Origin: a virus
Lineage: Duplodnaviria > Caudoviricetes
Reading direction: 5' to 3' (one strand)
DNA: 64,000 nucleotides
Virus record (IMG/VR): IMGVR_UViG_3300022661_000051
The notes under the pieces were generated by a model. That model did not search any database. It had not been told where the DNA came from and worked only from the letters and a program-made list of their open reading frames with translations. Shown piece after piece: positions 2,545-36,550 of the stretch; positions within the stretch are counted from its first letter, which is position 1; every line of letters begins with the position of its first letter. The position numbers and the translations under genes are program-made.

Positions 2545-4851
2545 TTAACAATCCCCAAGATACGTGCTCTGGTTAAGATAGAACTCCTGGATAGGAATTA
2601 TCTTAGTTCCATATTTCGTAGCCTTTTCAACATTGCCACTATTATACCCAGCAAACGGTATAAGCAATATGTCTGTAGCTTTAGTTACAGATCCTTCACT
2701 ACAATCATGTCCCATGCTAGATAAACGCATCATTAATTCTGCATCTCTAATTCCAGAGAAGCGAATAACTTTGCTAGTAACCAATGGTTCCGACGATTCG
2801 TTACCATTGCTCGAAATGACATTAGTCATATTATTGTGAATAAACAAGAGATCTTTCATGAAGAGATTTCTCTGTTTCACAATAATGCCTGCAGTCTTAT
2901 AACCGATACCCTTAATACCAGATAACAACGGTAATAAAACTGCTTCGTTTAATTTTATGATGTCTCTAAGAGATACACTCTTGAGAATAGCCTTCCATTT
3001 AGTTGCAGCTATACCATCAAATCCTAAAGCTCCTATTACGGTATAATCCATAACGGGAGTTGTTAAGAAATTACGAATAGCTTGCATAAGATTATCTCCA
3101 TTTGCATCTCCAAGAAGGAAAGCTCTGTCGTAATCTATATTCATTAGATCACTGAACGATGTAAGCTTAAGTTTCTTAACAGACTCTTCAGAGAATCCCT
3201 TGAAACCAAGCTTATTGAGCATATTAGTTAATCTTGCAATAACCCTTCCAGGACATTCAAGATTTTCACATGTTACATTCAGACCCGATTCTGATAATGA
3301 TAATGACATACCACATTCAGGACAAGTCTGAATAAACTGGAAGAATGGATTCGGATTATAGTAGTTCTCTTCTACATTCGCTTTATTAATGTAAGCCATA
3401 ACGTCATTGGTATACTCTATATCAATAACATCTCCAGGCTTTAAACAAAGCTCCATAAATCTTCCATACGAATGACCAGATGATTTTGTCTGGACATTTC
3501 CGAAGAACTCAACAGGGTCATACCATAACATAGGTGTGATGTCTCCATTAGCACCAACCGTATAAGTTATGTTTCTGATACGAGTCTGTTTCTTCTTTGT
3601 GTTGAACTTTATAGCTATAGAATATCTATTAACGGAGTTCTTTCTACCCAACGCCTTTCTTATCGCTGGGTCGAGATACGATACTACGACTCCGTCATAC
3701 ATAAATGGAAGAATATCTCTCATAGCTTCAGCTTCCTCTACGAATCTCTTTACCTGAAACAAAACAGATTCATAGTTACCAGTTACAACTGCATAACGCA
3801 AACCTTCTCCAGTAGCATAGTATTTATTCATGAACTCTATCTCCTCTACTCGGTTCATGTTATCGTGAGAAGTGGCTAACGGAACTAAGGTTATATATTT
3901 AGCTAACTGTGCAGCATTGCTAGAACCAAAGATTCCTATAATTGCGTTTCTTGCATTAGCATAATTCTTACCAGTATCAACACATAACTGGTGAAGATTA
4001 TACTTATTGATTATAGCCTCGAACTTCATTCCGAACGGTTCGATTTTATAACCTCTTGCATTTACAAATGGATAACCTGCCAAGATAGGAGTTATATCTG
4101 ATGCTTTGTCAATACCCGTATCTCCTCTAGTACGAGCTGATAATACCTGATCAGTAACTTCTCCTTCTACGCTTACTCCATCATATTTAAGTTCAAGTAC
4201 GAGAGTAATGTTATTCGGATCCACATATCCTTCCTGTACGTGCTTTCTTAAAAAGTCTCTCTCGAATATTTGAACGTTGTCATTTTCATAAACTCCCTTT
4301 TCTCTTGCTTCACAGTCTAATGTAAATTTAGCCTTATCAAGAGTTCCTACGAGCTGAGGGTATTTATGCGCTGTATTTCTGAGACGCTTTGAAACTACAT
4401 TTCTATTCTCTGGCATCTCTATAACAGTATGGTCTGCACGCATGAGATTTTTGTAAAAGAACATTGATTCTCTATCAATGTTATATTTTACAAATGCAGG
4501 TTTCGGTATGCTATAGTTATTATTAACCTCCTGTATATTTACTGAACCAGCTGAATTCTGAATCTGAATCGGTTCTGCACCGACTTGATAATTTGGATTA
4601 TACTTCTTATGCTTTTCGAGCAGAAGATCGTAAATTCCGTCTTCCAATACTAATATAGATCTATCAGTATTGTTGTATATGATGTTCGATATATGGAGAA
4701 TATCTCCAATAACTTCTTTTTCAACACTTGTTAACATATCGACTGGTTTACCAAGAAGACTCAGTACAATCTGATTTGTGTTGAAAATAACATCCTGAGT
4801 AAGACAACTAGCATCGCCATTATACAGATGCTGTAAGATGTCTTTAAACAT
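2545..4851 (-). CDS. ligA: NAD+-dependent DNA ligase
   Basis: ELKYDG adenylation motif, TRGD, YANARNA, DGVVV, IAIKF, CPECG...C...C zinc finger, HhH repeats and C-terminal BRCT. Confidence 0.95.
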   Translation of the reverse strand: MFKDILQHLYNGDASCLTQDVIFNTNQIVLSLLGKPVDMLTSVEKEVIGDILHISNIIYNNTDRSILVLEDGIYDLLLEKHKKYNPNYQVGAEPIQIQNSAGSVNIQEVNNNYSIPKPAFVKYNIDRESMFFYKNLMRADHTVIEMPENRNVVSKRLRNTAHKYPQLVGTLDKAKFTLDCEAREKGVYENDNVQIFERDFLRKHVQEGYVDPNNITLVLELKYDGVSVEGEVTDQVLSARTRGDTGIDKASDITPILAGYPFVNARGYKIEPFGMKFEAIINKYNLHQLCVDTGKNYANARNAIIGIFGSSNAAQLAKYITLVPLATSHDNMNRVEEIEFMNKYYATGEGLRYAVVTGNYESVLFQVKRFVEEAEAMRDILPFMYDGVVVSYLDPAIRKALGRKNSVNRYSIAIKFNTKKKQTRIRNITYTVGANGDITPMLWYDPVEFFGNVQTKSSGHSYGRFMELCLKPGDVIDIEYTNDVMAYINKANVEENYYNPNPFFQFIQTCPECGMSLSLSESGLNVTCENLECPGRVIARLTNMLNKLGFKGFSEESVKKLKLTSFSDLMNIDYDRAFLLGDANGDNLMQAIRNFLTTPVMDYTVIGALGFDGIAATKWKAILKSVSLRDIIKLNEAVLLPLLSGIKGIGYKTAGIIVKQRNLFMKDLLFIHNNMTNVISSNGNESSEPLVTSKVIRFSGIRDAELMMRLSSMGHDCSEGSVTKATDILLIPFAGYNSGNVEKATKYGTKIIPIQEFYLNQSTYLGDC

Positions 4852-4874
4852 CGCAAGACCTCCTTATATTTTTA

Positions 4875-5453
4875 TTATGCTGCCATCTCAGACAACAACT
4901 CAGGAGAATTTATATATGTCTTGATATTAGTAAGCATTTCATAATAGAATCTCTTTCTATTGAAGCAGTACTTAATAAGAAGATTTGTAATTCTCTTGAC
5001 CATTCTTGCAAACTTATGAACGATATATGCAAGGGTTTTCTTGATATTGGTAAAAATACCTTTGTTTTCGTTCATTACGACAGTTCTTCTTGAGAAGAAC
5101 TTACCTTTTTTACAAGATACACTCGGACCCTGATAAACAGCCTCGGCCCTCTTTGTACGATAGCGATGCTTGTTTTCATGAATCACTTTCTGTGACATCT
5201 CATAAAGAGACTCGTTGATGAATTTAAGAATTTTTGTAAGGAAGTAGCGTAATCTGCCATAACTGATATCAAAGTACCAGCAAAGCTGTTCTACGCTCAT
5301 ATGCTCCTTATACTGCTTCATCACGACTGATTTAATATCGAGAACTTCTCCGTACTGGTTAACGAGGCGATAACCGTCACTCTTTGTTGTTCTCTTCTTT
5401 CCATTTTTGGATTTGCCCAACGATCTTCTGATTCTTAACGCTTTCATAATCAT
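4875..5453 (-). CDS. Basic hypothetical protein, possible HTH DNA-binding protein
   Basis: 192-aa K/R-rich ORF; MSVEQLCWYFDISYGRLRYFL resembles an HTH. Confidence 0.55.
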   Translation of the reverse strand: MIMKALRIRRSLGKSKNGKKRTTKSDGYRLVNQYGEVLDIKSVVMKQYKEHMSVEQLCWYFDISYGRLRYFLTKILKFINESLYEMSQKVIHENKHRYRTKRAEAVYQGPSVSCKKGKFFSRRTVVMNENKGIFTNIKKTLAYIVHKFARMVKRITNLLIKYCFNRKRFYYEMLTNIKTYINSPELLSEMAA

Positions 5454-5459
5454 TCTCCT

Positions 5460-5912
5460 TTATCGTTTATTTTTAGGAAGCGTGTATACCACTATCTCTA
5501 TATCAGTATTATCAAATACTGTAAGAATAGCAGTCTTCACATCTTTCCATTTTAACTTATCTAAACCGCAACCTATTCGAGGCATTGCGATCTTCTTAAT
5601 ATTAAGCTCTGTACAGACCTTCTTCATATCCGACAAAGCAAACACCAAAGAACCAAACATTGGTTTGTTATAATAGTAAACTTTGGTAATGAGATTTAAT
5701 ATTGTTCTATTCTCGTGCTGAGTTGGTGCACAAGATCCGATTTTTATTGTACAATAACGATAGGTATTATATAAATCGTTTCTACAATTGAACCTTTTAT
5801 CAAACTCTTTAGCTATTCCAGCTCCAAGAGCAAAATCTGCACTTATACAATGTGCAAGTGCATAAGATTCGGGGACCTCAAAAAGGTCCCCGATTTCTTC
5901 TCGGAATATCAT
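5460..5912 (-). CDS. Macrodomain protein (TARG1/OARD1/Poa1p-like ADP-ribosylhydrolase)
   Basis: GDLF, LAHCISADFALGAGIAKEF, NLITK, AMPRIGCGLDKLKW. Start refined to ATG 5912, with its SD (GAGGAGG) in the end of the upstream gene. Confidence 0.9.
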   Translation of the reverse strand: MIFREEIGDLFEVPESYALAHCISADFALGAGIAKEFDKRFNCRNDLYNTYRYCTIKIGSCAPTQHENRTILNLITKVYYYNKPMFGSLVFALSDMKKVCTELNIKKIAMPRIGCGLDKLKWKDVKTAILTVFDNTDIEIVVYTLPKNKR

Positions 5913-5916
5913 AATA

Positions 5917-8076
5917 TTATTCCTCCTCTTTATTTTCAACCTTAATGAACGCAGGTACTTTAGGTCCAACCCTTTGGACAGGATTTATGCGTTCATGGCT
6001 AACTCTTAAAACAGGATTTACAAATTTAATAAATGCGGGCTTAAATCTCTTAAGTTTCTTAATAAACTTCAAAGCAAGTCCCATTGTTTTAAGACTACAG
6101 TTAAACTTTTCGACGGATCTTGATTTAGCGTCTGGATCAAGATGAACGTCTACGGTATATGGATCTCCTGTAAGAAGCTCAGATACTGATCTTCTTCCGA
6201 CAGGAGATGTGCTATACTTTAACAAATTAATCGCCCAAATTTCAGCTCCAAGCTGTATACCGATGTTTGTTTCCATTTCTCCCATTCTAATTGGTGTACT
6301 GGAATGAACTTCAGTATATTCTTTTGATGCGCGAGATTTTGTATTTTCGCCACGAATATTTGTAGCACTAAGACTCGTAGCAGAATGCTTTTCTTCAGCA
6401 CACTGTTTAAGTCTATATACATACTGAGCCGCACAAACGGATGATTTATTTGTCAGAATGTATCTGTAATTACCATTGGATCCCTTCTGAGGAACAACAA
6501 GTTTCTGAGGTTTAATCCAAGGGAAGTTCTGATACAATCTTCTAATTGTATCGAGATCTGCACATTCCGAAATAGGTTTTGCACTGATATACAATCCCTC
6601 TTCGGTAGCAATTTCTTTGATTAAGACCACCAACTCATCTTCATCCAGGCTGTTAATGAATTCTTTGAACGAATTCGCATACTCTGGTGAAATGACATCA
6701 TAAAATTTGATGATCATATCGACACATTCATCTATATGAAGACAATTAGTATCGATAAAACTTACGATATGCTTTGAGATATAGTTAAGAGATAACTCTA
6801 CCAACTGCATCACATTTAATCTGTTGTGGCATGTGGCGAAATTCCATATCAATTCCATATGGTCGCCGTTTTGAAATGCTGGCATAAGATGATCAGGCCT
6901 TACTTCAGCAACAACACCTTTTCCTCCACATCTATTAGAGATCTTGTCTCCTTGATCAAGAGGATTGGTAGCTAATACATATATTTCAACTTTCATATTT
7001 GAAAAGACCTTACCGTCTATTATATACTGAGCACCGGATAATTTCTTCTCGCAGATATCATACATCTGTGAAAGTTTATAGGACTTATGATAATTCGTAT
7101 TGTCGATATATGGTCTCAGAACTTCAACGAATTCTTGACAGAATCTTCTATCTTCTTCAATATAATATCGAAGCTGACCATCATAACAACTTTCATCTTC
7201 TCCCAGCGGTTTATTTGAATACACATTAATATCCATAACCCTAGCATCTACATCTGGTATCTTATATGTGATATCCGATATCATGGGTTTTGACAGTCTG
7301 TGCATTGCCTGGGAGAAAAACATCTCGTCTTTATTTTCTTTTCTGACACCTCCAAGTATACCGTTTTTAATATACTCTCCGACGTCAGGGAAAATTTTAT
7401 ACGTCTTACTGTCTCCGTATAAGTTAAGAGGAATATCGTTATCGTTGATAATGATTTCGACTTTCTTTATAGCAGGAGCAGCTAATTTCTTTGCAGCAGA
7501 TTCTGATATAACAACAGGATCTTCTGTATTAATAGCGAGAGCCATATATCCGCATCGGAGATTTACTCCATCCATATGATTCTCTTCACTGTCGAACGAT
7601 GTTGATGTTCGTAATGTATAATCATTAGGAATAGTGTCACCAACATTGAGGCAGTCCATTTTTGAGGTATTGTATAAATACCCGTAAGTTTCTGTTTGGT
7701 GATGATATGATACACGTTCAAACATATCAAGATCACCGTTCTGATTCATCACTATCAAATAATAGTGATGACCGGGAAGTTTTGAATACTTTTCAATCTT
7801 TGCAAGTATTGTCCATTCGCATTCAGTTTTAATCAATGATGCTGAATGTCTTGCAAATTCGGCTTCATAACCAGTGCCGAATAACGGAACTTCCGGGTTT
7901 AGAAGTTCAATTCTGTGAGTTGATTGTGTCGAGAACATTATTTTTCTCGACGAACTGTTCAATGGTTCGCAAGGTTGATTAAGACCGACACCAAGTATTT
8001 TTTCCATGTTGCCATTAAACTTAGCTCGGGCTTTATCTAACTGGTCTTCTATTGAAGGATCGTGGTAAATCTTCAT
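5917..8076 (-). CDS. Non-virion RNA polymerase beta subunit, C-terminal half
   Basis: NSSSRKIMF, EDPVVISES, GDKISNRCGGKGVV (catalytic lysines), YVYRLKQ, RMGEME; preceded by an early promoter. Confidence 0.92.
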   Translation of the reverse strand: MKIYHDPSIEDQLDKARAKFNGNMEKILGVGLNQPCEPLNSSSRKIMFSTQSTHRIELLNPEVPLFGTGYEAEFARHSASLIKTECEWTILAKIEKYSKLPGHHYYLIVMNQNGDLDMFERVSYHHQTETYGYLYNTSKMDCLNVGDTIPNDYTLRTSTSFDSEENHMDGVNLRCGYMALAINTEDPVVISESAAKKLAAPAIKKVEIIINDNDIPLNLYGDSKTYKIFPDVGEYIKNGILGGVRKENKDEMFFSQAMHRLSKPMISDITYKIPDVDARVMDINVYSNKPLGEDESCYDGQLRYYIEEDRRFCQEFVEVLRPYIDNTNYHKSYKLSQMYDICEKKLSGAQYIIDGKVFSNMKVEIYVLATNPLDQGDKISNRCGGKGVVAEVRPDHLMPAFQNGDHMELIWNFATCHNRLNVMQLVELSLNYISKHIVSFIDTNCLHIDECVDMIIKFYDVISPEYANSFKEFINSLDEDELVVLIKEIATEEGLYISAKPISECADLDTIRRLYQNFPWIKPQKLVVPQKGSNGNYRYILTNKSSVCAAQYVYRLKQCAEEKHSATSLSATNIRGENTKSRASKEYTEVHSSTPIRMGEMETNIGIQLGAEIWAINLLKYSTSPVGRRSVSELLTGDPYTVDVHLDPDAKSRSVEKFNCSLKTMGLALKFIKKLKRFKPAFIKFVNPVLRVSHERINPVQRVGPKVPAFIKVENKEEE

Positions 8077-8104
8077 TTTTACACTCCTTTTCTATAACGT
8101 GCGC

Positions 8105-8125
8105 GGGTAGAGTAAAACTCTACCC
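8105..8125 (-). terminator. Hairpin/terminator between recA and beta-C
   Basis: GGGTAGAGT-aaa-ACTCTACCC. Confidence 0.5.
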
Positions 8126-8136
8126 ACATCACCTCT

Positions 8137-8146
8137 ATAATATATA
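8137..8146 (-). promoter_or_regulatory. Putative early promoter TATATATTAT
   Basis: Exact motif upstream of non-virion RNAP beta-C, which must be an early gene. Confidence 0.6.
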
Positions 8147-8159
8147 AACTTATTTTTCT

Positions 8160-9613: not shown

Positions 9614-11047
9614 CTATCCAGAAATATTATCTTCTGAAAAAGGTGTCGGTGTTATATTTTTATTGGTTCCGAATCTTACCTTTGAATCATTATTGTTCTG
9701 GCGTGGAGCAGGATCCGTTACTGAAACCTTTTCAGCTGTTGGTGTAGATGAAACATTTTCAGAAGGTTTGCAATTCTGGGTAGTTCCGAATCTTCTTCTG
9801 TTACGTTTATTACCATCACCGCTGTTATTCAGAGCAGATACTGTACTTGTAGATTCGTTCTTATTAGCAGTAATAACGATGCTGTCGCTAACATTATTAG
9901 TTACAATACTGTGATGGTCTTTGATTGATATATCATCCATATCAAGTGCATTAAGACCGCTGATAATAGAATTATCATTCGACACTACCTGCTGATGCTG
10001 ATCCTTTAATCTTTCATACATTTTAGTGATCTCGTCCAATGGAAAATCAAGACCAGAAGCTATGATACGGATGAACTCGCCCTTAGATCTATCATTCTGT
10101 TTATGAACAAAAAGTTCCTGAGCGACGTTTCCAAGGCAGAGTCTTTCCTTAATAATAGCAAATGATGTATCGATAATATTAAGACGACTATCGTCGATGT
10201 TAATATATATCGCAACCTTTTTAGCAGTTGGTTTGAAAGGAAGATCAAGAGACTGATCGATTGCTGTTCCGATCCAAGTATTAAAGTTTTTTGCCGAGTT
10301 TAATACCTGCTTAAGATTGATTTCGAAACAAACAAGAAGATCTTTATTTGTTATAACCTTAAAATGGTCAGTATCATCAATATTAGTATCTGAATCGATT
10401 ATTCCATCAGCTTTAATCGCAGCAACCGATTTAGCAATACTTTCATTGATGTTGTCTTCCATATTGAAGATAGTTTCTCCGTCGGAACCCAAACCATTAT
10501 CATTATACTTTTTGTTAGATACTGTATGAATCGTATAATTCTTACCAGCAATATCTTTATAGTAGTTAATAGTATTCTGAACACCTCTAAGATCAGATTC
10601 CCATCCAGATATAGCTGTGATTATAATCGGAACTTTTGCCCAATTACCTTCTCCTACTTCATACATAAGAGCCTGATCGAGATATTCTGCGAGGACAACA
10701 GATGCTCCACTACCTGACGCACCCTCTGTTGTTGACATAATATGAATAAAATCGGCATTCTCGAGATTATCAAGAAGCTCTTCAATTTTATCCGGATTAT
10801 TATCGATGTATTCTTTCATAAGAATTTTAGCATTCTCTCTTACCTTGCCACAACCAGCATCTTTATTGTTAGAGATGATTATATTCTGAACTCCAGATTT
10901 GCCGCCTTCTCTATAATCAACAGGGATATCCTTAGTTGTAGAGTTAACGATAATACATTCTTCTGGTTTGAGAATACCTTTTTCGATACATTTGATCATT
11001 GCCTTTGTAGCGCCCTGACCACATGCAATTGTAAAACTTTTAAGCAT
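9614..11047 (-). CDS. Tubulin/FtsZ-family GTPase (PhuZ/TubZ-like)
   Basis: IACGQGA, DAGCGK (T3), TEGASGSG (signature loop), NIDDTD (T7 NxDxxD), long disordered C-terminal tail. Confidence 0.85.
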   Translation of the reverse strand: MLKSFTIACGQGATKAMIKCIEKGILKPEECIIVNSTTKDIPVDYREGGKSGVQNIIISNNKDAGCGKVRENAKILMKEYIDNNPDKIEELLDNLENADFIHIMSTTEGASGSGASVVLAEYLDQALMYEVGEGNWAKVPIIITAISGWESDLRGVQNTINYYKDIAGKNYTIHTVSNKKYNDNGLGSDGETIFNMEDNINESIAKSVAAIKADGIIDSDTNIDDTDHFKVITNKDLLVCFEINLKQVLNSAKNFNTWIGTAIDQSLDLPFKPTAKKVAIYINIDDSRLNIIDTSFAIIKERLCLGNVAQELFVHKQNDRSKGEFIRIIASGLDFPLDEITKMYERLKDQHQQVVSNDNSIISGLNALDMDDISIKDHHSIVTNNVSDSIVITANKNESTSTVSALNNSGDGNKRNRRRFGTTQNCKPSENVSSTPTAEKVSVTDPAPRQNNNDSKVRFGTNKNITPTPFSEDNISG

Positions 11048-13868: not shown

Positions 13869-15203
13869 GTGGGTTTATTCACTGACAATATAGATTCTTC
13901 AGAAGTATTAAACGAAGTCTACTTCGGTCAAACTCCTGGAATAACAAAAGTTTTTGAGGCTTTTTCTGCATTTCGTTCGAAATACGTCAATAGCAGAAAA
14001 GTTCTTGTTGGTAATATAGATGCAGATCACGATCCTCTTCTCGGAAAGTTCATATCTGAAGTTGAAAGGGAGTTTGGATTTTATTCCTTCTCGTTTGTAT
14101 GTCAATTTAACGACGAAGTAAATATGTGCACTATTGTACCATTCTTTAGAGGTTCAGACCCAAAGAAATGTGTTCAGATATCTAAAGACGGATTCAAGTT
14201 TAAAAAAGAAGCAGAAGTATCTGGCTTAACAATAGCTCCGGCTGGTATGTTATTATCTGAAGATTATACTGACCGTGAGATGTTTGCTATATTCCTTCAT
14301 GAGATAGGTCACAACTTCCAAGATTTCTTAAACGGAACTATTATGAGTTGTAAAACGGTTAATGATATGCTCCTTATCTACGGTCTTATAGTAGAAGCTT
14401 GTATCAGACCTGTCGCATTTATAAAAGATGTAGCTACACTTTCAATAGTAAATAATTATTCATTGAAAATTCTATCTAAGGCATTCAATAAAATATCTAT
14501 CTCTCAGAATAGAACATTCATATCATATATAAATTTTGTTGGTGGTATATGTAGCATCGCAACCTCCACAGTAAAACAAGTACTAGGTCTCGCCACATTA
14601 CCGATTATGTTAATATATGCAGCGGTTCGTGAATTAATCGGATCTGTTATGAATCCTGTTCAAACCGTACGCGGTTATTTAGGAGAAAAATTTTCTGATG
14701 ATTTTCCATCATATTATGGCTTCGGACCTGATATAACATCGGCTTTACGAAAGTTAGGTATTATTGATGGAACAAAAACTGGCGTATTGTACGCTGTAGA
14801 TAAGATTCCTCTTATATCTCATTTCTACAATTTATTGCTCTTACCTGGAACTATTCTTTTGGAAATTTCAGATTGTCATCCGTCATCTCCAGCGAGAGTT
14901 AAAGGTGTAGTAAATTCAATGAGACATGATCTCCAAAACCCATCATTATCACCAAAGCTTAAAGCTCAATTAAAGAAAGAACTGGATTTGGTAGAGTCAC
15001 AAACTGAGGATTATTATAATAATCTGAAGAAAACAGATCCTGCTTTCTTAAAGAAGGTTTTCGATAAGTATATCTTCTATGCTTGTGATGGAGGAGCTAA
15101 ACATAAATTCTTTACGAAGGTATTTGACTTTGAAAATGATAATACAAAATCGGCTAATAACCTTCGTGAACAGTCCTTTATTGCAAACATAGAAGTTAAA
15201 TAA
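13869..15203 (+). CDS. Zn metalloprotease-like (HExxH) protein, probably virion-packaged
   Basis: AIFLHEIGH, downstream E..SD and HP...R (M48-like); hydrophobic central helices; VLNE and NLRE putative head-protease sites near the termini. Confidence 0.65.
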   Translation: MGLFTDNIDSSEVLNEVYFGQTPGITKVFEAFSAFRSKYVNSRKVLVGNIDADHDPLLGKFISEVEREFGFYSFSFVCQFNDEVNMCTIVPFFRGSDPKKCVQISKDGFKFKKEAEVSGLTIAPAGMLLSEDYTDREMFAIFLHEIGHNFQDFLNGTIMSCKTVNDMLLIYGLIVEACIRPVAFIKDVATLSIVNNYSLKILSKAFNKISISQNRTFISYINFVGGICSIATSTVKQVLGLATLPIMLIYAAVRELIGSVMNPVQTVRGYLGEKFSDDFPSYYGFGPDITSALRKLGIIDGTKTGVLYAVDKIPLISHFYNLLLLPGTILLEISDCHPSSPARVKGVVNSMRHDLQNPSLSPKLKAQLKKELDLVESQTEDYYNNLKKTDPAFLKKVFDKYIFYACDGGAKHKFFTKVFDFENDNTKSANNLREQSFIANIEVK

Positions 15204-16479: not shown

Positions 16480-16992
16480 TTATCTAGCCCAGTCAGGACA
16501 AGGAGCAGATACTGTAAGTCCTTCATGTGCAGGAACCTTTGTTTCTGCCTTAACATAACCGCCGTCAACCTTTTTAGGATATCTCTTAACAGACTCAGGA
16601 ACGTCCTTAAGCTGAATAGAGATGTTTGACTTTTCTGTACCGCCGAGATTAATCTTACGGCCTGTTCTGAGATATGTATTTGTGAAGTCCTTAGAAAGTG
16701 CAATCATTGTTTCTGCATCGCTCTTCTTAGCCTCATAAGACTCAACAAGATTTTCAGCTTCAGCCTTAGAGATTTTTGCCGTTGCAGAAACTACATTGCT
16801 GAGCATGCTTCTGTATTCCTGTGCAGGGCAGTGTTCTGATGTGCCGGAATTTGTGAATGTTGTTACCTTAAAATCCTTATCATTGAGCATTGCTCTCATA
16901 ACAGCAACTTCATCTTTATTTGAAGCTGATGCCTGTGAAAGGTTCTCCTTAATGTTTTTGATAAGATCCGCTGTTTTCATGATTTCTGACAT
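16480..16992 (-). CDS. HU/IHF-like DNA-binding protein
   Basis: Helical N-terminus then GRKINLGG...IQLKDVPE...KVPAH beta-arm pattern of HU. Confidence 0.5.
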   Translation of the reverse strand: MSEIMKTADLIKNIKENLSQASASNKDEVAVMRAMLNDKDFKVTTFTNSGTSEHCPAQEYRSMLSNVVSATAKISKAEAENLVESYEAKKSDAETMIALSKDFTNTYLRTGRKINLGGTEKSNISIQLKDVPESVKRYPKKVDGGYVKAETKVPAHEGLTVSAPCPDWAR

Positions 16993-17005: not shown

Positions 17006-17197
17006 TTAAGATATTAATAATAAGTGTTTGTTCCCGTCTGTAATCTTTACAAATGCGGGAATCGGTTTAACTACCGGTTTACCATTCTTCTTGATAAACT
17101 CATTGATCTCTATATCTGTCATTGATAACAGAGTATTTATAAATTCATCCCTAGAATGGGGAATACCGATATCTTTTGATTTGCTTTTAATAGCCAT
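17006..17197 (-). CDS. Small hypothetical protein carrying a PAFVK motif
   Basis: 63 aa, AGGAGG SD, late promoter 17236-17247. Confidence 0.75.
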   Translation of the reverse strand: MAIKSKSKDIGIPHSRDEFINTLLSMTDIEINEFIKKNGKPVVKPIPAFVKITDGNKHLLLIS

Positions 17198-17333: not shown

Positions 17334-18209
17334 ATGTCATCAAATACATGTATCGGCTATGTATTACATGAAGCCGTTACCGAAACAGAAGCTACTATTC
17401 TTGATACAAAAAATGGCAAGCCTTACGCTACCGGAATTCTTCAGGATCTTGGAGTCGAAAATAGAAACGGAAGAATATATGAAACTTCGGAAATGAAACC
17501 TGAAGTTGAAGGAGACCGTATTCAGAAAGAGCTTATTCCTTATGGATATATGAGAGGTCATGCCGGACATCCGTCAACCTCAGATCTTTCTATTCAGTCT
17601 ACTATCGATCCTAAACTCTGCTGTGTTCAGTTTGATAAAATATGGATGGATGGTAACCTTATCAGAGCAAACTACCATGGAACTAATAATGAATACGGTA
17701 GAGCATTCTCAGAAGATCTTCTCGAGGGTTGCTTCCCAGCATTTAGTTTAAGAGCACTAGGTTCTGTGGACCGTTCTAGAAACGGAAAGTGCTATGTAAG
17801 AAATCTTCGTATTATTACATGGGATCATGTAATTTATCCTTCACATAAGAGAGCATATACAGAAAAGCTTATCGATGCTAAGGATGCTAGAGGTACAATC
17901 AAAGAATCAGCTATCATCCTTCCAAACGATCCAAGAGCTAAATTCCATAAGGCTTGTATGATTGAAGAAGCAACAGCTTCGGACGGTAATGTAATTCCTA
18001 TAATGAATCAGCAGGTTGTAGATTACGTTAAGAGTGAATCTGCAAATATCAAGTCTATTATAAACACATTTGATACTCTTTACGAATCAGCTATTCTTGT
18101 AAATAACGGCAAGGCTGTATCCCTCAAGATTAAAGGTGGAGATACAATTATAGTAAATCTTGAATCTTATATTCAGGACGAAATTATGAACTGGTGTTAT
18201 AATAACTAA
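17334..18209 (+). CDS. Prohead core protease (T4 gp21/S77-like)
   Basis: ENRNGRIY, GHAGHP, FSLRALGS, ITWDHVIYPS; C-terminal tail with several xxES/A self-cleavage sites. Confidence 0.9.
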   Translation: MSSNTCIGYVLHEAVTETEATILDTKNGKPYATGILQDLGVENRNGRIYETSEMKPEVEGDRIQKELIPYGYMRGHAGHPSTSDLSIQSTIDPKLCCVQFDKIWMDGNLIRANYHGTNNEYGRAFSEDLLEGCFPAFSLRALGSVDRSRNGKCYVRNLRIITWDHVIYPSHKRAYTEKLIDAKDARGTIKESAIILPNDPRAKFHKACMIEEATASDGNVIPIMNQQVVDYVKSESANIKSIINTFDTLYESAILVNNGKAVSLKIKGGDTIIVNLESYIQDEIMNWCYNN

Positions 18210-18217: not shown

Positions 18218-18241
18218 GTAGGGTGCGTAATCGCACCCTAC
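18218..18241. terminator. Bidirectional terminator between convergent genes
   Basis: GTAGGGTGCG-taat-CGCACCCTAC. Confidence 0.7.
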
Positions 18242-19062
18242 TCTCTTTCCACTTTAACAAATGCTGGTACATAATTCGGTATCTGAGGAATTGTTTGTAC
18301 AGATTCTATATTATCTGGATGCGATACTCCTATAACAGTATTTCCAGATATGTCGTTTTTATATTCAGCCAATCTTTCTTTAAGCATTTTCTGAAGATCA
18401 TGTAACTGATCTATTTGAGAATTATCTCCCATTTCGACACTTATATATTTCTTTTCGAGTACTTGTTTATAATTATCATTCATAGACCCTTCTATTGTAA
18501 GGCGTTCAAGCTCATCCAATTTGTCGAGAAGCTCCGGATCTATGTAATTGTAGTACATAGCAATGAATTGACGATAATAACCGTATACTTTATCAACCGG
18601 TACAAAAATATACTGGTTGTGGACAAGTTCATGTACTGTCTCACATAATGGAATAAGACCGAGCATTAAGCTATAATGTATGTACATTACTTCATAAGCT
18701 ACAGCTTCAATATCAAGACATTCGCCCAAGCTCATTCTTTTATTAAGAATGATTACACATATATCATATAAAGTTATAGGTGAATGATGAATTTCTATCT
18801 TTACCTTAAATGAATTTTCATTGTTGATATTGGGCATGAATGCACATGACCTCATATTCATATACTCTCTTAGATATGCGATCATATTTCGATACTCGAA
18901 AGAACACCTTACAAACCTTTCAAGATCTTTTATATATTTAGCTCTATCCTTTTCATCGAAAAGATCATAGTCCTGAATTTCGTACGCAGGAATGTCGTTA
19001 GGAATTCTGATAATATCTATCTCGTTCGGTTGAAGAGGTATCATACTATTTTCACCGATCAT
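18238..19062 (-). CDS. HNH-like nuclease-fold protein (paralog of 54475-55197)
   Basis: CAF...IEIHH...GLIPLCETVHELVH; C-terminal PAFVK; late promoter 19092-19103. Confidence 0.55.
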   Translation of the reverse strand: MIGENSMIPLQPNEIDIIRIPNDIPAYEIQDYDLFDEKDRAKYIKDLERFVRCSFEYRNMIAYLREYMNMRSCAFMPNINNENSFKVKIEIHHSPITLYDICVIILNKRMSLGECLDIEAVAYEVMYIHYSLMLGLIPLCETVHELVHNQYIFVPVDKVYGYYRQFIAMYYNYIDPELLDKLDELERLTIEGSMNDNYKQVLEKKYISVEMGDNSQIDQLHDLQKMLKERLAEYKNDISGNTVIGVSHPDNIESVQTIPQIPNYVPAFVKVERE

Positions 19063-19475: not shown

Positions 19476-20345
19476 TCATTTACGAATGATCTGCTTAGCT
19501 GCTTCATAAGCTGATTCCATAGTAGTACAATTACAAAGGAATCCAGAGTTATGACAGAAAGTCATAGATCCAGGAAGTTCAGATTGGGGTTTACCACACC
19601 ATTCCTTTGGGAATTGATAATCTGATTCCATTGTGTTAATTGCTTTCGGAAGAACCTGAGCAGCAAAGCCGCCTCTGAGGTGAGGATATATTACAACCTT
19701 CACTGTAGGAAGTTTTGTAAGACAATATCTAATGAAATCGGCATACTTATCGAGAAACAGAACAGTACCATTTTCATTAACTCTTCCATTCGCATCGATA
19801 TAGCTCCAGGCTGCATTTCTATTATCCAGCTCCGCAAACTTTCTTTTAATGATCTTTTCTGCAATATCTACAGCTTCACTGAAACGTCTGTTCTCAAGAA
19901 TATCTCGAGCCGAGCTGTCCGGTATAATATAATTTGCGCTGTAATGTTCGACTTCTTCGATCGTTGGGTTGAATAATCGTATCATGTCATTGATAGCACA
20001 CTTCTCTCCACCGTTATCATGGTTATCAATTGGCTGAACGAATTCTTCATCAAAAGTAGGATATTTCTCCCAATCTCCAAACTCTCTCCAGAGAAGTCCA
20101 AATGCGGCATACTTTATACCGTTAGGACGAACTTCTGCATCTTTCTGATGATGATCGAACTTACCAAGTCCAATATCATAAATGATAGTGTCAGGACTAT
20201 TAAGAATTTCCTCATCAACTTCGTTGAGCTTTATTGTTCTTATGATAGAGATATCGTGTTCCTTAAAAAGTATTTTAAGAAGCGCAGTTGAGAAAACCTC
20301 ATCTGCATGGAACTGAGTGCTATGTGTTATTAAAATTTTGGACAT
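19476..20345 (-). CDS. MYG1 (UPF0160) family exonuclease
   Basis: THSTQFHADE, DIG..FDHHQ, YAAFGLLW, IDNHDNG, FCHNSGF. Confidence 0.9.
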   Translation of the reverse strand: MSKILITHSTQFHADEVFSTALLKILFKEHDISIIRTIKLNEVDEEILNSPDTIIYDIGLGKFDHHQKDAEVRPNGIKYAAFGLLWREFGDWEKYPTFDEEFVQPIDNHDNGGEKCAINDMIRLFNPTIEEVEHYSANYIIPDSSARDILENRRFSEAVDIAEKIIKRKFAELDNRNAAWSYIDANGRVNENGTVLFLDKYADFIRYCLTKLPTVKVVIYPHLRGGFAAQVLPKAINTMESDYQFPKEWCGKPQSELPGSMTFCHNSGFLCNCTTMESAYEAAKQIIRK

Positions 20346-28568: not shown

Positions 28569-29594
28569 TTATACTGTTGCTGTTGTTGTAGTAGTTGTTG
28601 TAGGTGCCGGAACCGGTGTAGGTGCCGGAACCGGTGTAGGTGCAGGGATACCAGGTGTAGGGATATTTCCCATTACCGGTGCCTGCGGTGTTGCCTGAGG
28701 CTGCTGAGGAGCAAAGTTCGGGAATGCCTGAGCTGCGCTCATTCCATTCTGAACCTGTCCAGGTGCAGGAACTACGCCACCTCTTACGAAGTCGCTAGTC
28801 ATGATACCACCTGAAGGCATAGGCTGCTGTCCGTATGTCGGCTGACCCATCATAGGCTGACCGTATGTCGGCTGTCCGTATGTCGGCTGACCCATCATAG
28901 GCTGACCGTATGCAGGCTGTCCATATGTCGGCTGACCCATCATAGGCTGACCGTATGCCGGCTGACCCATCATAGGCTGCTGACCGATTACGCTAAGACC
29001 GAGACCGGTGCCAAGAGCAATCGGATTGTTGAAACCACCGTTCTGATAGTATGGAGTAGACACAGGCTGTACCCACTTATCAATAGCATGCATCGCATTG
29101 CTCCAGTCTTTCGAAGCTGCCTGATACATATCAGGTATCTTCTTAAGGATTACCTGCATTGCGTATACAGTTTCGGCAAATTCTGCCGGAGGATTGATCC
29201 AGTAGAGCTTAATTGACTGGAAGACGTCAAGCATAGCTTCACTGAGCACCTTTACATCATCCACTGTAGGTTTAACTACGTGGAACTCTTCGCCACAATG
29301 GTTACACTTCACCTGATTTGTGGCAGAGTCGACAAGGACGATATCGATGTCGCCGCTGTCCTTTCTGTGGTTACATCTTGCCTTCGCAAGATCCACATTG
29401 CTGATAGAGAAAGGACGAACGCCTGCATTTTTAAGGATAGCATCATCCTCTGCAGTTGTTGTCTTTCTGGTCTTCATGTTCGGAGGTGTAACTGTTATAC
29501 CTCCATTGATTCCGTACTGCGGAATCTGTCCGTATGGAGTTACACCTCCATAATTGTACATGTTGTTTGGATAAAAAATGCCGTCGTTCATCAT
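28569..29594 (-). CDS. Zinc-ribbon protein with prion-like Q/P/G/Y/M low-complexity tail
   Basis: CNH...CNHCGEEF; about ten GQP(MM/TY/AY) pentapeptides; PAPTPV repeats; early promoter 29661-29670. Confidence 0.75.
   Translation of the reverse strand: MMNDGIFYPNNMYNYGGVTPYGQIPQYGINGGITVTPPNMKTRKTTTAEDDAILKNAGVRPFSISNVDLAKARCNHRKDSGDIDIVLVDSATNQVKCNHCGEEFHVVKPTVDDVKVLSEAMLDVFQSIKLYWINPPAEFAETVYAMQVILKKIPDMYQAASKDWSNAMHAIDKWVQPVSTPYYQNGGFNNPIALGTGLGLSVIGQQPMMGQPAYGQPMMGQPTYGQPAYGQPMMGQPTYGQPTYGQPMMGQPTYGQQPMPSGGIMTSDFVRGGVVPAPGQVQNGMSAAQAFPNFAPQQPQATPQAPVMGNIPTPGIPAPTPVPAPTPVPAPTTTTTTTATV
28820..28985 (-). repeat. Coding 15-bp tandem repeat (GQPxx)
   Basis: GGCTGACCCATCATA / GGCTGACCGTATGTC units. 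Confidence 0.85.
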
Positions 29595-29710
29595 TTTTGA
29601 ACTCCTCCTATTATTAAATATTTTTATTTTTTAAAGACAGTAATGTCTTTATACGCTTTTATTATATACAAATGAAACCTTTTTTATCAAGCAATTTACT
29701 TTGCTCGGTA

Positions 29711-30211: not shown

Positions 30212-30266
30212 TATTATATGACCTCCTTTACTTATTTCATTATTTATAAGTTAGGAGGTCATCAAT

Positions 30267-30785: not shown

Positions 30786-30804
30786 TTTCAATACTTCCTT
30801 TCTT

Positions 30805-31389: not shown

Positions 31390-31451
31390 TTTTGACCTCC
31401 TTTAAGTTTTTAAATCTGAATGGGGTTATCATTCAATACTATAATATACAA

Positions 31452-32660: not shown

Positions 32661-32661
32661 A

Positions 32662-33195
32662 TTAACCCTTCTTTCTTTCTAACATTCTTTCCTCTTTAAG
32701 AAATACAAGATATTCGTCGATTTCAGGTAAGCGTGATGCTGTCATCCATTCATCCTGTTTAGCTATAAAACTAATAAATCTTAAAGACTCAGACTTGAAA
32801 GGATCTGACACTATATCATATCCAGGTCTAATTCTTGCTGCAACACAAGACTTTCCGAATTCATCAATTGGTGTGAAGAAGAATGACTGTATGTTTATAT
32901 CATTCTCCATCTGATACTTACGGAGATATATATTGAACAAGAACTGCATAAGTTTTGGGTTGTTGATTGGATCGAACGGAACAATTCCTGTACTGTTACT
33001 TACCATATTTTTTGGATAGAATATATACTTTTCGTTATTGTAGAGCAATACATTCTGTCCATCATAGAGAACGCCGTTAACGACATACAACTGCAATGAT
33101 GTAATCAATTCATATTCGATGTCGGCAATCACCTTTAAATAATCGAACTCGTTTGCTTTCATGATTTCTCTTCTCTTCTTCGCTGACATTGCCAT
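32662..33195 (-). CDS. Hypothetical protein
   Basis: Start refined to ATG 33195 after AAGGAG. Confidence 0.75.
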   Translation of the reverse strand: MAMSAKKRREIMKANEFDYLKVIADIEYELITSLQLYVVNGVLYDGQNVLLYNNEKYIFYPKNMVSNSTGIVPFDPINNPKLMQFLFNIYLRKYQMENDINIQSFFFTPIDEFGKSCVAARIRPGYDIVSDPFKSESLRFISFIAKQDEWMTASRLPEIDEYLVFLKEERMLERKKG

Positions 33196-33263
33196 AATTA
33201 AACACTCCTTAATATTATAAACTTTCTCCGCCGAACCATCTATTAAAGACTTACGGGGAGGAA

Positions 33264-33620
33264 TTGACATTGAAGAATTATTCTAAGTATAATTTCATAC
33301 ACGAAGCAATCTTATATGAAGATTGTAATAGAGATGAAATACCTAGTATAAAACATCCATTTTACATAAAGGTACTAGTTCCTCTGGAGTCAGAGGTTGG
33401 TAGTACGATATCTGCAAAACGTAATAACATCATGAACAAAGATGTCACGATGCTTTCTACACAAAACATGCTTAGTGAAGTCACAATAGATTTGTACATT
33501 CCCAGATATCTCTCATTAGACTATCCTGAGGATGTCATTCCTAAAGGAACTAAGTTTTTAGTTTGTTTTGTAGGCGGAAATATTAATAATATCCAAATCA
33601 TAGGGAGGTGTTATCAATGA
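33264..33620 (+). CDS. Putative baseplate hub/spike OB-fold-like protein
   Basis: FYIKVLVP...IPKGTKFLVCFVGGNINNIQIIG resembles the gp5/gpV OB-fold; start uncertain. Confidence 0.45.
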   Translation: MTLKNYSKYNFIHEAILYEDCNRDEIPSIKHPFYIKVLVPLESEVGSTISAKRNNIMNKDVTMLSTQNMLSEVTIDLYIPRYLSLDYPEDVIPKGTKFLVCFVGGNINNIQIIGRCYQ

Positions 33621-34060
33621 TATCATTAGGATCTGTAAAGCCATCTCAAACAAGAACGCTTACTGCGTTTGTTAATTCGAAGCCATCATCTCAATTATCA
33701 TATCATTATCTTTCTCTTCTTGAAAAGGATAGTAAGAATAATATAGAATATCCGGTATATAATGTAATATCTGATTACATTCAGGATCTCAAAAAGAGAT
33801 GTACTGTAGTAACGTTATCGGATAAAGAATATTATACGTATAGATTTAGACCGAAGTTATTGGCCGATTATCTATATGGAAATGGAGAGTTATATTTTAT
33901 CATTCTCCACTTAAACGATATGTGGTCCGTTAAAGACTTTGATAAGAGAACTCTCCTCTTATTACCAAAAACAGACTTATCAGAAATTTTAAGTAGTATC
34001 AATGCTTCCGAAAAGGAATTCATAAATACTTACAACCAATATGCTTCTAACAACAGCTAA
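33608..34060 (+). CDS. Baseplate wedge protein, T4 gp53/LysM-like
   Basis: YRFRPKLLADYLYGNGELYFIILHLN; probable start ATG 33617. Confidence 0.65.
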   Translation: MLSMISLGSVKPSQTRTLTAFVNSKPSSQLSYHYLSLLEKDSKNNIEYPVYNVISDYIQDLKKRCTVVTLSDKEYYTYRFRPKLLADYLYGNGELYFIILHLNDMWSVKDFDKRTLLLLPKTDLSEILSSINASEKEFINTYNQYASNNS

Positions 34061-34065
34061 ACATA

Positions 34066-34091
34066 TCAGGCATACTTCGGTATGCCTGATC
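34066..34091. terminator. Bidirectional terminator
   Basis: ATCAGGCATAC-ttcg-GTATGCCTGAT. Confidence 0.8.
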
Positions 34092-34099
34092 TTGTTCGT

Positions 34100-36550
34100 T
34101 TAATGGAACATTCTATTCATAATACCTACATACTCTGGCGAGTGTAGTATAGCTTCTGCTTCATGATGATTTTCCATCTTTATAAACGCATTCTTTTTGG
34201 TTGCAGGAACGAAGGCATTATACATATCAAGTTTTTCGTTCATCTTAATCTCTCCACGTTTAAAAGCTTGACGGTGCTGATTAATCCACCAATAATCATT
34301 AATGGTGTTATTTTCAGCATGTATCATATTATAACATCTAACAAGTCTTTCTTCTTTAGAGCCATAAGGATCATAGTTTTTAGTATATGCATCACTAAAG
34401 TAGTAATCATCCATATACTTTTTATACGATACTGGTGTGTAATTCATAAAGTCTATATCGGTTTCATGAAGAGCCGCATATTCTTTATAATCCCAATATC
34501 TTCTTTGCATTTCCGGAGAGAATGAGTCGTAATTGATCTCGCCGTTTACAACTCGAGGTTCGTTTCTCCAGTTTGGATTGAAGTCATATACATTACCCTG
34601 AGCATCTTTAAATTTATGAAGCTCATTAACTTTCTTAGTTACGAAATTCTGAAGATGCTGAGCATAGTCGTTTATATTGAAATTTACTTTACGAACAACT
34701 TGAGTGACATCTGTCTTATAAGTTGTTTCAAAGTCAACTCGTTCGTCATATTCTGTTGTAAAGAATACAGCACCGAAACAATTTCCGACATTGACCATTT
34801 CGTGTCCCTTTGGAAGTTTTGGAGGTGCTGATTTTAAATTAGGTTTAATTGCTGTACATACTGTAGGTGAAACGATTGTCTGAGGTCCCCGTTTACTATT
34901 ATCTGGAACTTCAACATTTTCGTCTATTACAGTTTTAGGTTTGGATAACTGATTTAAAGTAGGTTCGAAAGATGTAAGGAAATGAGATGTTCTCTTATTC
35001 ACATCTTCCAATAGCTTAATACTCAGTAAGTTATTTCCATTAACATCATCCTTAGAACCAACCGATGCATATGGCTGATAGAATGATGACTTACCATTTG
35101 TAATCTTCGGAGAAAGTGTAGTATAACGCGATTTAATCATGTTCATACCAAGATACTTTCTTCCATCAAATATTACTGGACAGATTATGATACCCATGTC
35201 CATCTTATTAGCGATACCCATAGACTCGGCTATGTGTGAAAGATTTAATAAAGATACAGGATCTGGATTATTCATCGCTTGAGCCTGTTCAATAATCATA
35301 TTAGCATTTCTATTGAGCTGACCTGCAGTAACTATCGGAATATCAAGTTTAGTTGCAGCTACTTTAAGCTGTACCATTGAAGATTCCAATCTAAATCTTT
35401 CTTCAGATATAGCATATGCTCTTTGTGACGGTGGAAGTTCAGGTTCTATAAGAGCTAAGTAGTCAACAAAAAGTGCTATTAACTCGTAACCTGCTTTATC
35501 AAGAGCATTATAAAGAGAATATATCCATGAAGTTGTAATACTATTTGCTTCTTCATACTTAATACAAAGAGAAATATTATTAGAGTCTTCATTAGTCGGA
35601 AAGTTTTTATTCATCATACGCATAACTTCATTTGGGTCGTACTCTTTCATTGCATGCGTAGTTCTGTTTACCATTGTAAATTTACGCTCTTCTGTTTCAT
35701 CATAAGTGTTTTCAAGAGATAAATAAACAATCATAGGTTTCTTCGAAGGATCTTTACAGACATAATACTCGTTATATCTTTTTGCTTGAATAGCAAGGTC
35801 TAAAAGAGTAATGGATTTACCTCGACCTTGAATACCAAATAAAGAATATACCTTTGTAGGGTATAATCCTCCTCGCATAAATTCATTAAGAGCTTCAATT
35901 CCTGTCTTCAAACATGCTGTAGGTCTGTTTGAACGTTCATGATACTGCTCATAATAATTACGTGAAGCTTCTTGATCCATTGGCATGATCATTCCGCTTA
36001 AAATATCAGCGTCACTGATCGTTTTTGCTTTTCTTTCATTAATCTCTTCGATTGAAGAGTTTAAATCATTGAAAACTTCAGACGGGTCATCCTGACTAGC
36101 ACCAGTGATAACATCTGTAGCTCTCTGAATTTTATATTCAATAGCATTATAGTCAGATCTTTCGTATTCATCTGCTACCTGCTTATTAATTTCATTTATA
36201 TCATTCTCACTCAAAGTATGTACTGATGAGAACAACTGGTCAAATTTATCACCATAGCCCTCAGCCATGGCGCTTTTAATAAGATTAATATCTGTTACGC
36301 CACCGTTAAGTCTAGCGTCTAAGCCTTTCTTAACAGCCTGAATTTGTTTATAAGACTCTGGTTGAGAGTCGTAATATTTCTTCTCTACCAAATCGAGAAG
36401 ATCTTTTACCGATTTATAGTTTGTTTCTGTTAAATCATCAGTTAATGTATAACTGATGAGGGACTCTACAAGATAAGGATTAAGAGGATGATTGATAATT
36501 TTTGTCTTATCCTTTAATTTTCTATAGTTAGATGGGTTATAAACACTCAT
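34100..36550 (-). CDS. DnaB-like replicative helicase with long C-terminal extension
   Basis: LKTGIEALN, Walker A GIQGRGKS, YLSLE, FVDYL, TAGQLNR, KSR; start refined to 36550 (GAAAGGGG SD, downstream of promoter 36581-36592). Confidence 0.85.
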   Translation of the reverse strand: MSVYNPSNYRKLKDKTKIINHPLNPYLVESLISYTLTDDLTETNYKSVKDLLDLVEKKYYDSQPESYKQIQAVKKGLDARLNGGVTDINLIKSAMAEGYGDKFDQLFSSVHTLSENDINEINKQVADEYERSDYNAIEYKIQRATDVITGASQDDPSEVFNDLNSSIEEINERKAKTISDADILSGMIMPMDQEASRNYYEQYHERSNRPTACLKTGIEALNEFMRGGLYPTKVYSLFGIQGRGKSITLLDLAIQAKRYNEYYVCKDPSKKPMIVYLSLENTYDETEERKFTMVNRTTHAMKEYDPNEVMRMMNKNFPTNEDSNNISLCIKYEEANSITTSWIYSLYNALDKAGYELIALFVDYLALIEPELPPSQRAYAISEERFRLESSMVQLKVAATKLDIPIVTAGQLNRNANMIIEQAQAMNNPDPVSLLNLSHIAESMGIANKMDMGIIICPVIFDGRKYLGMNMIKSRYTTLSPKITNGKSSFYQPYASVGSKDDVNGNNLLSIKLLEDVNKRTSHFLTSFEPTLNQLSKPKTVIDENVEVPDNSKRGPQTIVSPTVCTAIKPNLKSAPPKLPKGHEMVNVGNCFGAVFFTTEYDERVDFETTYKTDVTQVVRKVNFNINDYAQHLQNFVTKKVNELHKFKDAQGNVYDFNPNWRNEPRVVNGEINYDSFSPEMQRRYWDYKEYAALHETDIDFMNYTPVSYKKYMDDYYFSDAYTKNYDPYGSKEERLVRCYNMIHAENNTINDYWWINQHRQAFKRGEIKMNEKLDMYNAFVPATKKNAFIKMENHHEAEAILHSPEYVGIMNRMFH

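Follow-up and report, generated by a model that had tools for sequence, protein, structure and literature searches.

Why do unrelated replication and transcription proteins of one phage carry the same five residues, PAF[VI]K, in their tails and linkers? The question is raised by a 64,000-nucleotide stretch of a Caudoviricetes genome (IMG/VR record IMGVR_UViG_3300022661_000051), hereafter the window, which is the reverse strand of bases 26309-90308 in a complete virus record (G000; 230,692 bp, with terminal repeats) and gave no match to cultured phages by megablast. From sequence comparison with four relatives, we find that PAF[VI]K is probably this phage's own spelling of a lineage-private docking tag borne by DNA-handling proteins that act after infection, and that such a tag very probably co-evolves with one phage-encoded partner. 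A preliminary description of the window had proposed that non-homologous proteins of replication and transcription share a short linear motif, and the enrichment, the kept positions and the joint respelling reported below show that this motif is real.

Recurrence of the pentapeptide in one genome

Six-frame translation of the window recovered six copies (five PAF[VI]K and one NAFIK), on the minus strand only, each in frame inside a long open reading frame (ORF) and at the coordinates first reported. Their carriers were identified from Pfam, PHROG and the annotation of AR9, a distant cultured relative, and are given here with the copies.

4486-4500, minus strand: PAFVK (KPAFVKYN), residues 118-122 of a 768-residue NAD-dependent DNA ligase, in the variable linker before the adenylation domain (gene 2545-4851, minus strand; Pfam PF01653/PF03120, PHROG 3869; homologue of AR9 g095)
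6025-6039, minus strand: PAFIK (FKPAFIKFVN), first copy in the C-terminal half of the non-virion RNA polymerase (RNAP) beta subunit, residues 680-684 of 719, in the C-terminal tail (gene 5917-8076, minus strand; Pfam PF00562, PHROG 3295)
5941-5955, minus strand: PAFIK, second copy in the same protein, residues 708-712 of 719, at the C-terminus, which reads KVPAFIKVENKEEE
17045-17059, minus strand: PAFVK (PIPAFVKITD) in a 63-residue protein made of a helix-extension-helix-like N-terminal module, assigned by eye without a profile, and the tag (gene 17006-17197, minus strand)
18253-18267, minus strand: PAFVK (YVPAFVKVERE, C-terminal), four residues before the C-terminus of a 274-residue protein (gene 18238-19062, minus strand; PHROG 12252, function unknown; homologue of AR9 g242)
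34178-34192, minus strand: NAFIK (KKNAFIKMEN), residues 799-803 of an 828-residue DnaB-like replicative helicase, 25 residues before the C-terminus (gene 34100-36586, minus strand; Pfam PF20307 divDNAB at residues 170-527 and PF03796; PHROG 19)

Further carriers lie outside the window, at these positions of the genome.

92279-92509: 76-residue Zn-finger protein with the N-terminus MMIVMKAFIKV
155489-157657: C-terminal half of the non-virion RNAP beta' subunit, 722 residues, so named from the annotation of AR9 g154 and ending in VPAFVKVEHNDE
157672-159225: superfamily 2 (SF2) helicase ending in NPFIRL
174923-175363: C-terminal piece of the exonuclease-bearing subunit of the split B-family DNA polymerase, with KNAFIKIK

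The extended consensus in this phage is [VK]-[PN]-A-F-[VI]-K-[VI]-E and then acidic residues; NPFIR is a variant, and GVPAFVKVEHNDE is an example of the tag as a 12-15-residue peptide. Three proteins terminate 4-7 residues past the consensus. Among the 204 proteins (72,403 residues) of a greedy ORF set for the whole genome, there are six occurrences of PAF[VI]K where composition would give 0.061 (Poisson probability 7e-11), and the probability is still about 1e-4 once corrected for all 5-mers in an alphabet merging V and I. When the genome is translated in six frames, all six copies fall in the coding frame and the other five frames have no copy; the codons vary among copies (four Pro codons, four Ala codons, GTT/GTA/ATT/ATA, AAA/AAG). 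Because the codons differ and other frames hold no copies, the recurrence acts at the protein level, as the preliminary description had claimed from the codons, and a DNA-level repeat or a promoter overlapping gene ends is ruled out.

The copies are placed 1-41 residues from a C-terminus or, in the ligase, in a linker ahead of the first Pfam domain, which begins at residue 189; they lie outside Pfam domains and past the region alignable to AR9-group orthologues, extreme termini included. The RNAP beta C-half is by tblastn the homologue of AR9 g089, annotated as a non-virion RNAP subunit, and its tail extends past about residue 672, where alignment with AR9, S6 and LPJP1 stops. Judged by these alignments, the copies do appear to sit in non-conserved, probably disordered tails and linkers of non-homologous proteins; tails and linkers were also where the first description had put them. 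The possibility that the tag is the conserved C-terminal helix of bacterial-type beta subunits was dropped, the homologous MGL.L.F segment being upstream of the tail. Recurrence above chance, unrelated carrier families, placement in non-conserved tails or linkers and, as shown below, positions kept in orthologues are together the marks of a short linear motif.

Two earlier statements about the carriers needed revision. The 274-residue protein had been called HNH-like, yet no HNH domain is detectable in it and it has no Pfam match. That carriers act on DNA was correct in substance, but not the restriction to four of them, since all carriers are nucleic-acid proteins or lie within that gene set. 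A look-alike, PAFLK, occurs at 15039-15053 (plus strand of the window) within a 444-residue protein of PHROG 2767 (13869-15203); it is internal and outside the tag context and therefore probably accidental.

Concerted respelling in related phages

The comparison genomes (G002, complete; G004, G005 and G006, whole) are IMG/VR relatives at about 50% median protein identity. PAF[VI]K is absent from all four, and each has a tag of its own at the same sites. G002 has xLF[VIKQ] at the homologous sites of six carriers: its RNAP beta tail reads NQLFVECGKN, DKLFQECGKN, EQLFIECGKN and, at the very end, DKLFKYMGDD, its beta' subunit terminates in SDELFKYMGD, and its ligase linker and polymerase hold KESLFVYQ and NRGLFINC. 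G004 spells the tag PLF[EQR][VI], with QKMLFE in an RNAP tail that has six tag copies in all, G005 spells it IINPFIH[IV][DE] (22 copies in 16 proteins), and G006 spells it [YR][CTQ]PF[TSEY]I, with [CT]PFxI as the shorter form.

The same pattern is seen carrier by carrier. Orthologues of the 63-residue protein have, in the same place, NDQLFVFQ (G002), VNPFIRID (G004), KVFIHLDE (G005) and YCPFMII (G006); orthologues of the 274-residue protein end in CVPLFRSPWD, IINPFIHLE or EYCPFVISK, the one in G002 being without the tail; DnaB tails read SNGLFIRV in G002 and YAPLFRVIE, IINPFIHVA and MYCPFSIA elsewhere, the last two at the C-terminus; and the ligase orthologues hold their own tag within the same linker. 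DnaB, the RNAP beta C-half, the ligase and the 63-residue protein are tagged in all five genomes, the RNAP beta' C-half and the 274-residue protein in four of five. The motif is thus conserved in orthologues as to position and not as to spelling, which changes in all carriers of a phage together.

Scoring matrices built for each genome gave 11-28 matches at home and 0-3 abroad, with about 0.5 expected from shuffles, the home counts being partly circular; non-circular matrices, built from RNAP-tail copies only, gave 12-13 home matches in G005 and G006 versus 0-3 elsewhere. An alignment-based scan of IMG/VR yielded 80 loci with 55 distinct RNAP beta C-half tails, most of which carry, by eye, 2-7 copies of a lineage-specific hydrophobic or aromatic motif, including SP[FVI]KF, HPIxIxPIxF, PMxF, GMVY, MVxLVMCK and TPFT[VI]. 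An automated count of repeats was modest: a reduced-alphabet 4-mer is repeated in 39 of the 55 tails, with a mean maximum of 1.95 versus 1.59 in shuffled tails. In distant AR9/S6-like IMG/VR contigs (L126-L136), the RNAP beta C-half tails share, in place of repeated private tags, a single conserved segment [EK][EL][IL]F[IAV]GTxEE[YF], which may be an ancestral or an unrelated feature. Two AR9 RNAP tails hold no comparable tag, in a scan of AR9 limited to these tails.

Since positions are kept while letters change in all carriers of a genome, the tag would be read by one partner that changes alongside it, and because a conserved host pocket would not tolerate PAFVK, NPFIH, GMVY and MVNLVMCK, that partner is probably phage-encoded. 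With its invariant Phe, a Pro one or two positions ahead and beta-branched residues behind, the tag looks like a short strand or turn that would fill a hydrophobic pocket.

Across the five genomes, four of the five non-virion RNAP subunits are tagged (beta N-half, beta C-half, beta' C-half and an AR9 g226-like fifth subunit), as are both split DNA polymerase subunits, DnaB-like and SF2 helicases, the ligase, an SbcD-like phosphoesterase, the 274-residue protein, small Zn-finger proteins and the 63-residue family. The RNAP beta N-half, the fifth subunit, the other polymerase subunit, the SbcD-like nuclease and HNH homing endonucleases are carriers that the relatives add. The HNH/NUMOD4 homing endonucleases of G005 and G006 bear the resident phage's tag at their N-termini, the tagged segments reading MKELYTPFTIKPF... 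and ...NMNPFEHERW....

L161:12110-12691, plus strand, G006: tagged homing endonuclease
L165:13265-13936, minus strand, G006: tagged homing endonuclease
119989-120993, G005: tagged homing endonuclease

The tag was not found in these genomes on virion RNAP homologues, structural proteins or metabolic proteins; given the absence from the first two, a prohead-protease site or a capsid-targeting peptide was dropped as a reading.

Both DNA polymerase subunit genes of G000 consist of two ORFs each (172996-174492 with 174923-175363, and 151533-153176 with 153671-154114), and the large terminase gene is split likewise (212307-214058 with 214484-215098), with gaps of 400-500 bp in all three. In the relatives each of these genes is a single ORF, and introns or other insertions likely split the G000 copies.

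The partner and the rival readings

We propose that the invariant Phe and its flanking aliphatic residues would plug, as a short strand or turn, into a pocket of one co-evolving phage receptor, that the tagged enzymes would thereby gather at one place on replicating phage DNA, and that the 2-7 copies on the RNAP beta tail would give avidity. Like T4 gp45, the hub would link late transcription with replication, as a toolbelt of the clamp-like or processivity-factor kind. On sequence grounds, a DNA-bound clamp-like or processivity hub is a serious candidate for the partner, if short of a probable one; a gate or scaffold of a compartment or condensate is appreciably less likely, and the remainder falls to phage chromatin proteins or something unforeseen. 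The hub might, for example, be the product of the following gene.

175369-176013 of the genome, outside the window: 214-residue candidate receptor, encoded 6 nt behind the polymerase gene

This gene abuts or overlaps the stop codon of the polymerase gene in all five genomes. Its product is fast-evolving (18-28% identity among the five) and belongs to a family with 495 representative clusters in metagenomes; the family profile finds the gene in G000 and finds none in the four cultured AR9-group phages AR9, S6, phiR1-37 and LPJP1 or in phiKZ. Position, evolutionary rate and distribution make the 214-residue protein the best receptor candidate. An hhalign comparison with AR9 g131 gave no match.

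Several results weigh against a docking tag read by such a hub. Pfam, PDB sequences and an hhalign comparison with T4 gp45 gave no match to the 214-residue protein, comparison of its N-terminal with its C-terminal half detected no internal duplication, and its pattern of presence and absence is common to other clade-specific genes, namely those for a tubulin-like protein, for proteins of 221, 246 and 341 residues and for an extended HU-like protein. No AAA+ clamp loader scored above the cut-off in the five genomes in a scan with PF00004 only, whose matches were confined to P-loop fragments of helicase and recombinase genes. It is not obvious why a processivity hub should need tags on as many as four RNAP subunits, on homing endonucleases or on proteins of 44-72 residues. 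UvsX, both topoisomerase II subunits, the Dda-like helicase, primase and SbcC are without the tag in the five genomes, so that it is not universal for DNA enzymes. The non-circular matrix signal, finally, reaches a modest level in G000 and G004 and stays at background in G002. Loader-independent processivity factors do exist, herpesvirus UL42 being an example.

Searches for a familiar receptor were negative within their scope. No clamp family was found by Pfam or PHROG among about 50 proteins scanned, a subset of the proteome, and no clamp, single-stranded DNA-binding protein (SSB) or importer family among about 45 neighbouring or clade-specific proteins. PAF[VI]K and NPFIH match none of the clamp-binding consensuses Qxx[LIM]xx[FY][FY], QL[SD]LF and LDFLF, and any resemblance to clamp-binding motifs is limited to the xLF core in G002 and G004. 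The 246-residue protein encoded beside the ligase gene was considered as a clamp and is not one. Adjoining its gene in all five genomes is that of a 221-residue acidic protein of no family (957-1622 of the window, minus strand; 30-35% identity), with an invariant-looking segment [YF][ES][SD]RFGxNxxNDKR.

The alternative that survives best, although we regard it as unlikely on balance, takes the tag for an address: a signal for targeting or import, comparable to a nuclear localisation signal (NLS) or a cargo-loading peptide, which admits proteins into a secluded replication compartment or condensate holding the phage DNA; the receptor would then be a gate, shell or scaffold protein and not a DNA-bound hub. 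An address would account better than a processivity hub for separately tagged pieces, tagged endonucleases, an untagged virion RNAP and a tubulin-like gene. In G005 the two polymerase subunits, and across genomes four of the five non-virion RNAP subunits, are translated separately and tagged separately, selfish endonucleases carry the resident tag, and virion, structural and metabolic proteins go without it. The clade, unlike AR9, encodes a tubulin/FtsZ-like protein next to tag-carrier genes, and a conserved 341-residue protein with a long low-complexity tail rich in Q, P, M and Y could serve as scaffold. Species-specific import determinants are known in chimalliviruses (PMC12908238). Known import into the phage nucleus, by contrast, works without terminal signals (PMC12908238), and there is hence no precedent for a terminal address. 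Chimallin was not found by sequence and profile searches, PF25677 giving nothing at E<=10 in the five genomes and phiKZ gp54 (chimallin) nothing in this genome. No shell or importer candidate turned up, no search aimed at PicA/Imp1 having been made; phiKZ gp69 has no Pfam family. The untagged UvsX, topoisomerase II, Dda-like helicase, primase and SbcC, and the HU-like protein, which is likewise without the tag in the five genomes, also count against an address.

More doubtful still is the specific form of this alternative, in which the tag would be a linear NLS that admits replication and late-transcription polypeptides, and resident homing endonucleases with them, into a chimallin-independent compartment or condensate. 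This body would be built by jumbo phages of gut and rumen, an AR9-related clade that encodes a tubulin, and fast divergence of the spelling would keep it private to each phage. Two genes of the window are relevant to it.

9614-11047, minus strand: tubulin/FtsZ-like protein, 477 residues (Pfam Tubulin GTPase domain, E 9e-6, below the cut-off)
28569-29594, minus strand: 341-residue protein with a CxH...CxxC zinc-ribbon-like core

The tubulin-like gene lies between the UvsX-like recombinase gene and the RNAP genes, and its product is conserved in six clade genomes (G002, G004, G005, G006, G007 and G008); it has no tblastn match in AR9, and phiKZ PhuZ as query found no match in this genome. Its long low-complexity tail ends in a cross-lineage peptide, [YF]SE[DE]xI, with two RFGT repeats in G000. 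In the 341-residue protein the core is followed by about 150 residues of GQP[TA]YGQP-type low complexity rich in Q, P, M, G and Y and then by a Thr-rich end, an architecture found also in G002, G004 and G006; an SSB-like or condensate-scaffold protein is possible.

Improbable, in our estimate, is a receptor in phage chromatin, either the 246-residue protein or an HU/IHF-like protein encoded next to the 63-residue protein, which would coat phage DNA; docking would then bring enzymes to phage rather than host DNA.

16480-16992, minus strand: HU/IHF-like DNA-binding protein, 170 residues, with an extra N-terminal domain and no tag (AlphaFold2 pLDDT 87.6)

We had considered this 170-residue neighbour as a clamp-type receptor, an idea set aside because it is predicted by AlphaFold2 and Foldseek to fold like HU/IHF instead; the best Foldseek PDB matches of the model are all HU/IHF-type histone-like proteins (E about 3e-3), and the protein has 75 homologues, one of them from a Eubacterium metagenome-assembled genome, a hint as to the host. 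The 63-residue family, conserved and with little beyond its helix-extension-helix-like module and the tag, is the minimal tag carrier, and its gene lies directly upstream of the HU/IHF-like gene in all five genomes; the beta-hairpin of the extra N-terminal domain is, moreover, the most variable part of an otherwise conserved protein. Both points favour chromatin. Gene adjacency is by itself weak evidence, however, the fold matches are marginal, and the HU-like protein is 45-64% identical between genomes with entirely different tags, with no visible co-variation. On the other side of the 63-residue gene, between it and that of the 274-residue carrier, the opposite strand holds a head-maturation protease gene (PHROG 207/3014) at 17334-18209 (plus). 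Further along, the minus strand at 19476-20345 encodes a 289-residue protein matching the MYG1 exonuclease family (PF03690, E 1e-32), which is unusual for a phage.

We consider it very improbable that the tag serves quality control, being read by a phage GroEL-like chaperonin or, as a degron, by a protease and not by a docking or localisation hub. Degrons and chaperonin-binding loops are short hydrophobic strand-like peptides at chain ends, as is the tag, and the genome encodes a GroEL homologue (homologue of AR9 g228). Carriers of 44-76 residues need no chaperonin, however; only nucleic-acid proteins are carriers, while large structural proteins are untagged; AR9 has GroEL and yet no comparable tag on the two of its RNAP tails examined; and fast private respelling is ill-suited to a conserved chaperonin groove.

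That the motif has no function, and reflects chance, composition, a DNA-level repeat or common descent of tails, can be dismissed: the 5-mer was sought post hoc and some weak matches are probably accidental (PAFLK at 15039-15053 of the window, KAFIK at 222184-223251 of the genome), but this reading is already contradicted by the enrichment, which withstands the 5-mer correction, by the differing codons and empty non-coding frames, by non-homologous carriers and by the same orthogroups being tagged in five genomes with different spellings.

Known docking systems and the meaning of a private tag

PCNA, the beta clamp, T4 gp45 and SSB are familiar cases of docking between a hub and its clients through a short peptide, and in them the peptide is conserved over vast evolutionary distances. 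The PIP box of PCNA and the beta-clamp motif QL[SD]LF are short motifs in disordered ends whose clients compete for one pocket, and they are conserved across whole domains of life; small motif-only regulators of these clamps, p21 and TIP, are comparable to the 63-residue protein. Unlike those motifs, PAF[VI]K fits neither consensus and has no identified clamp beside it. The C-terminal tip of bacterial SSB (DDDIPF) organises a dozen genome-maintenance proteins through one peptide-pocket interaction, with the polarity reversed: there the hub carries the peptide and the clients have the pocket, whereas here the clients carry the peptide. Cargo peptides of encapsulins and microcompartments are likewise short and terminal, sit on flexible linkers of unrelated cargo and fill one shell-protein pocket, but our analysis turned up no shell protein, and the tagged proteins are enzymes of DNA, not of metabolism.

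The nearest parallel is with T4 and RB69 gp45, which is bound by one motif on polymerase, ligase and gp33 (PMC6212786). In both systems a short hydrophobic peptide, terminal or in a loop, would dock DNA polymerase, ligase and proteins associated with RNA polymerase on one hub (for gp45, the gp43 C-terminus, a loop of ligase gp30, gp33 and gp55), and it is by docking on gp45 that late transcription is tied to replication; the G002 and G004 spellings have an LF core that resembles LDFLF. Here, in contrast, neither a gp45-like sequence nor a clamp loader was detected, the tag is also on core RNAP subunits (2-7 copies), helicases, a nuclease, homing endonucleases and tiny DNA-binding proteins, and the spelling is private to each lineage, with complete turnover at about 50% proteome identity.

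Two chimallivirus systems also invite comparison. Rhc, a clamp-derived monomeric RNase H fusion (RNase H-clamp), serves the split DNA polymerase and late transcription independently of a loader in phages earlier thought to lack clamps (PMC13648698, a preprint of October 2026 in which the word motif does not occur). Those jumbo phages have the same split B-family polymerase and multisubunit non-virion RNAP as ours; the profile of the 214-residue family, for its part, has no match in phiKZ. Import into the chimallivirus nucleus through PicA/Imp1 selectively admits replication and transcription proteins by determinants that differ between phage species, recognising surface patches of folded cargo and not a terminal signal (PMC12908238). 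The shared feature here is a linear terminal peptide, and chimallin is not detectable. Taken together, the sequence comparisons suggest that the tag works like known hub-peptide systems, while membership among clamp clients is not established, no loader having been found and no consensus matching.

We found no published description of the tag, and a full-text search for short linear motifs in jumbo phages gave no paper. What is new is a private, fast and concertedly changing code with 10-20 carriers, multi-copy core RNAP subunits among them, and its capture by homing endonucleases. A whole virus clade, with at least 55 distinct lineages in IMG/VR, rewrites a peptide on 10-20 proteins at once with positions kept, which offers a natural experiment on code change in an interaction network that stays intact, and a ready-made set of orthogonal peptide-receptor pairs. 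With the tag, one can also tell from sequence alone which proteins a jumbo phage recruits to its DNA, selfish endonucleases with a copied resident tag among them. The identity of the receptor would decide whether multisubunit-RNAP jumbo phages outside Chimalliviridae have a hidden processivity hub coupling replication and late transcription, or seclude their DNA and import proteins by a linear signal.

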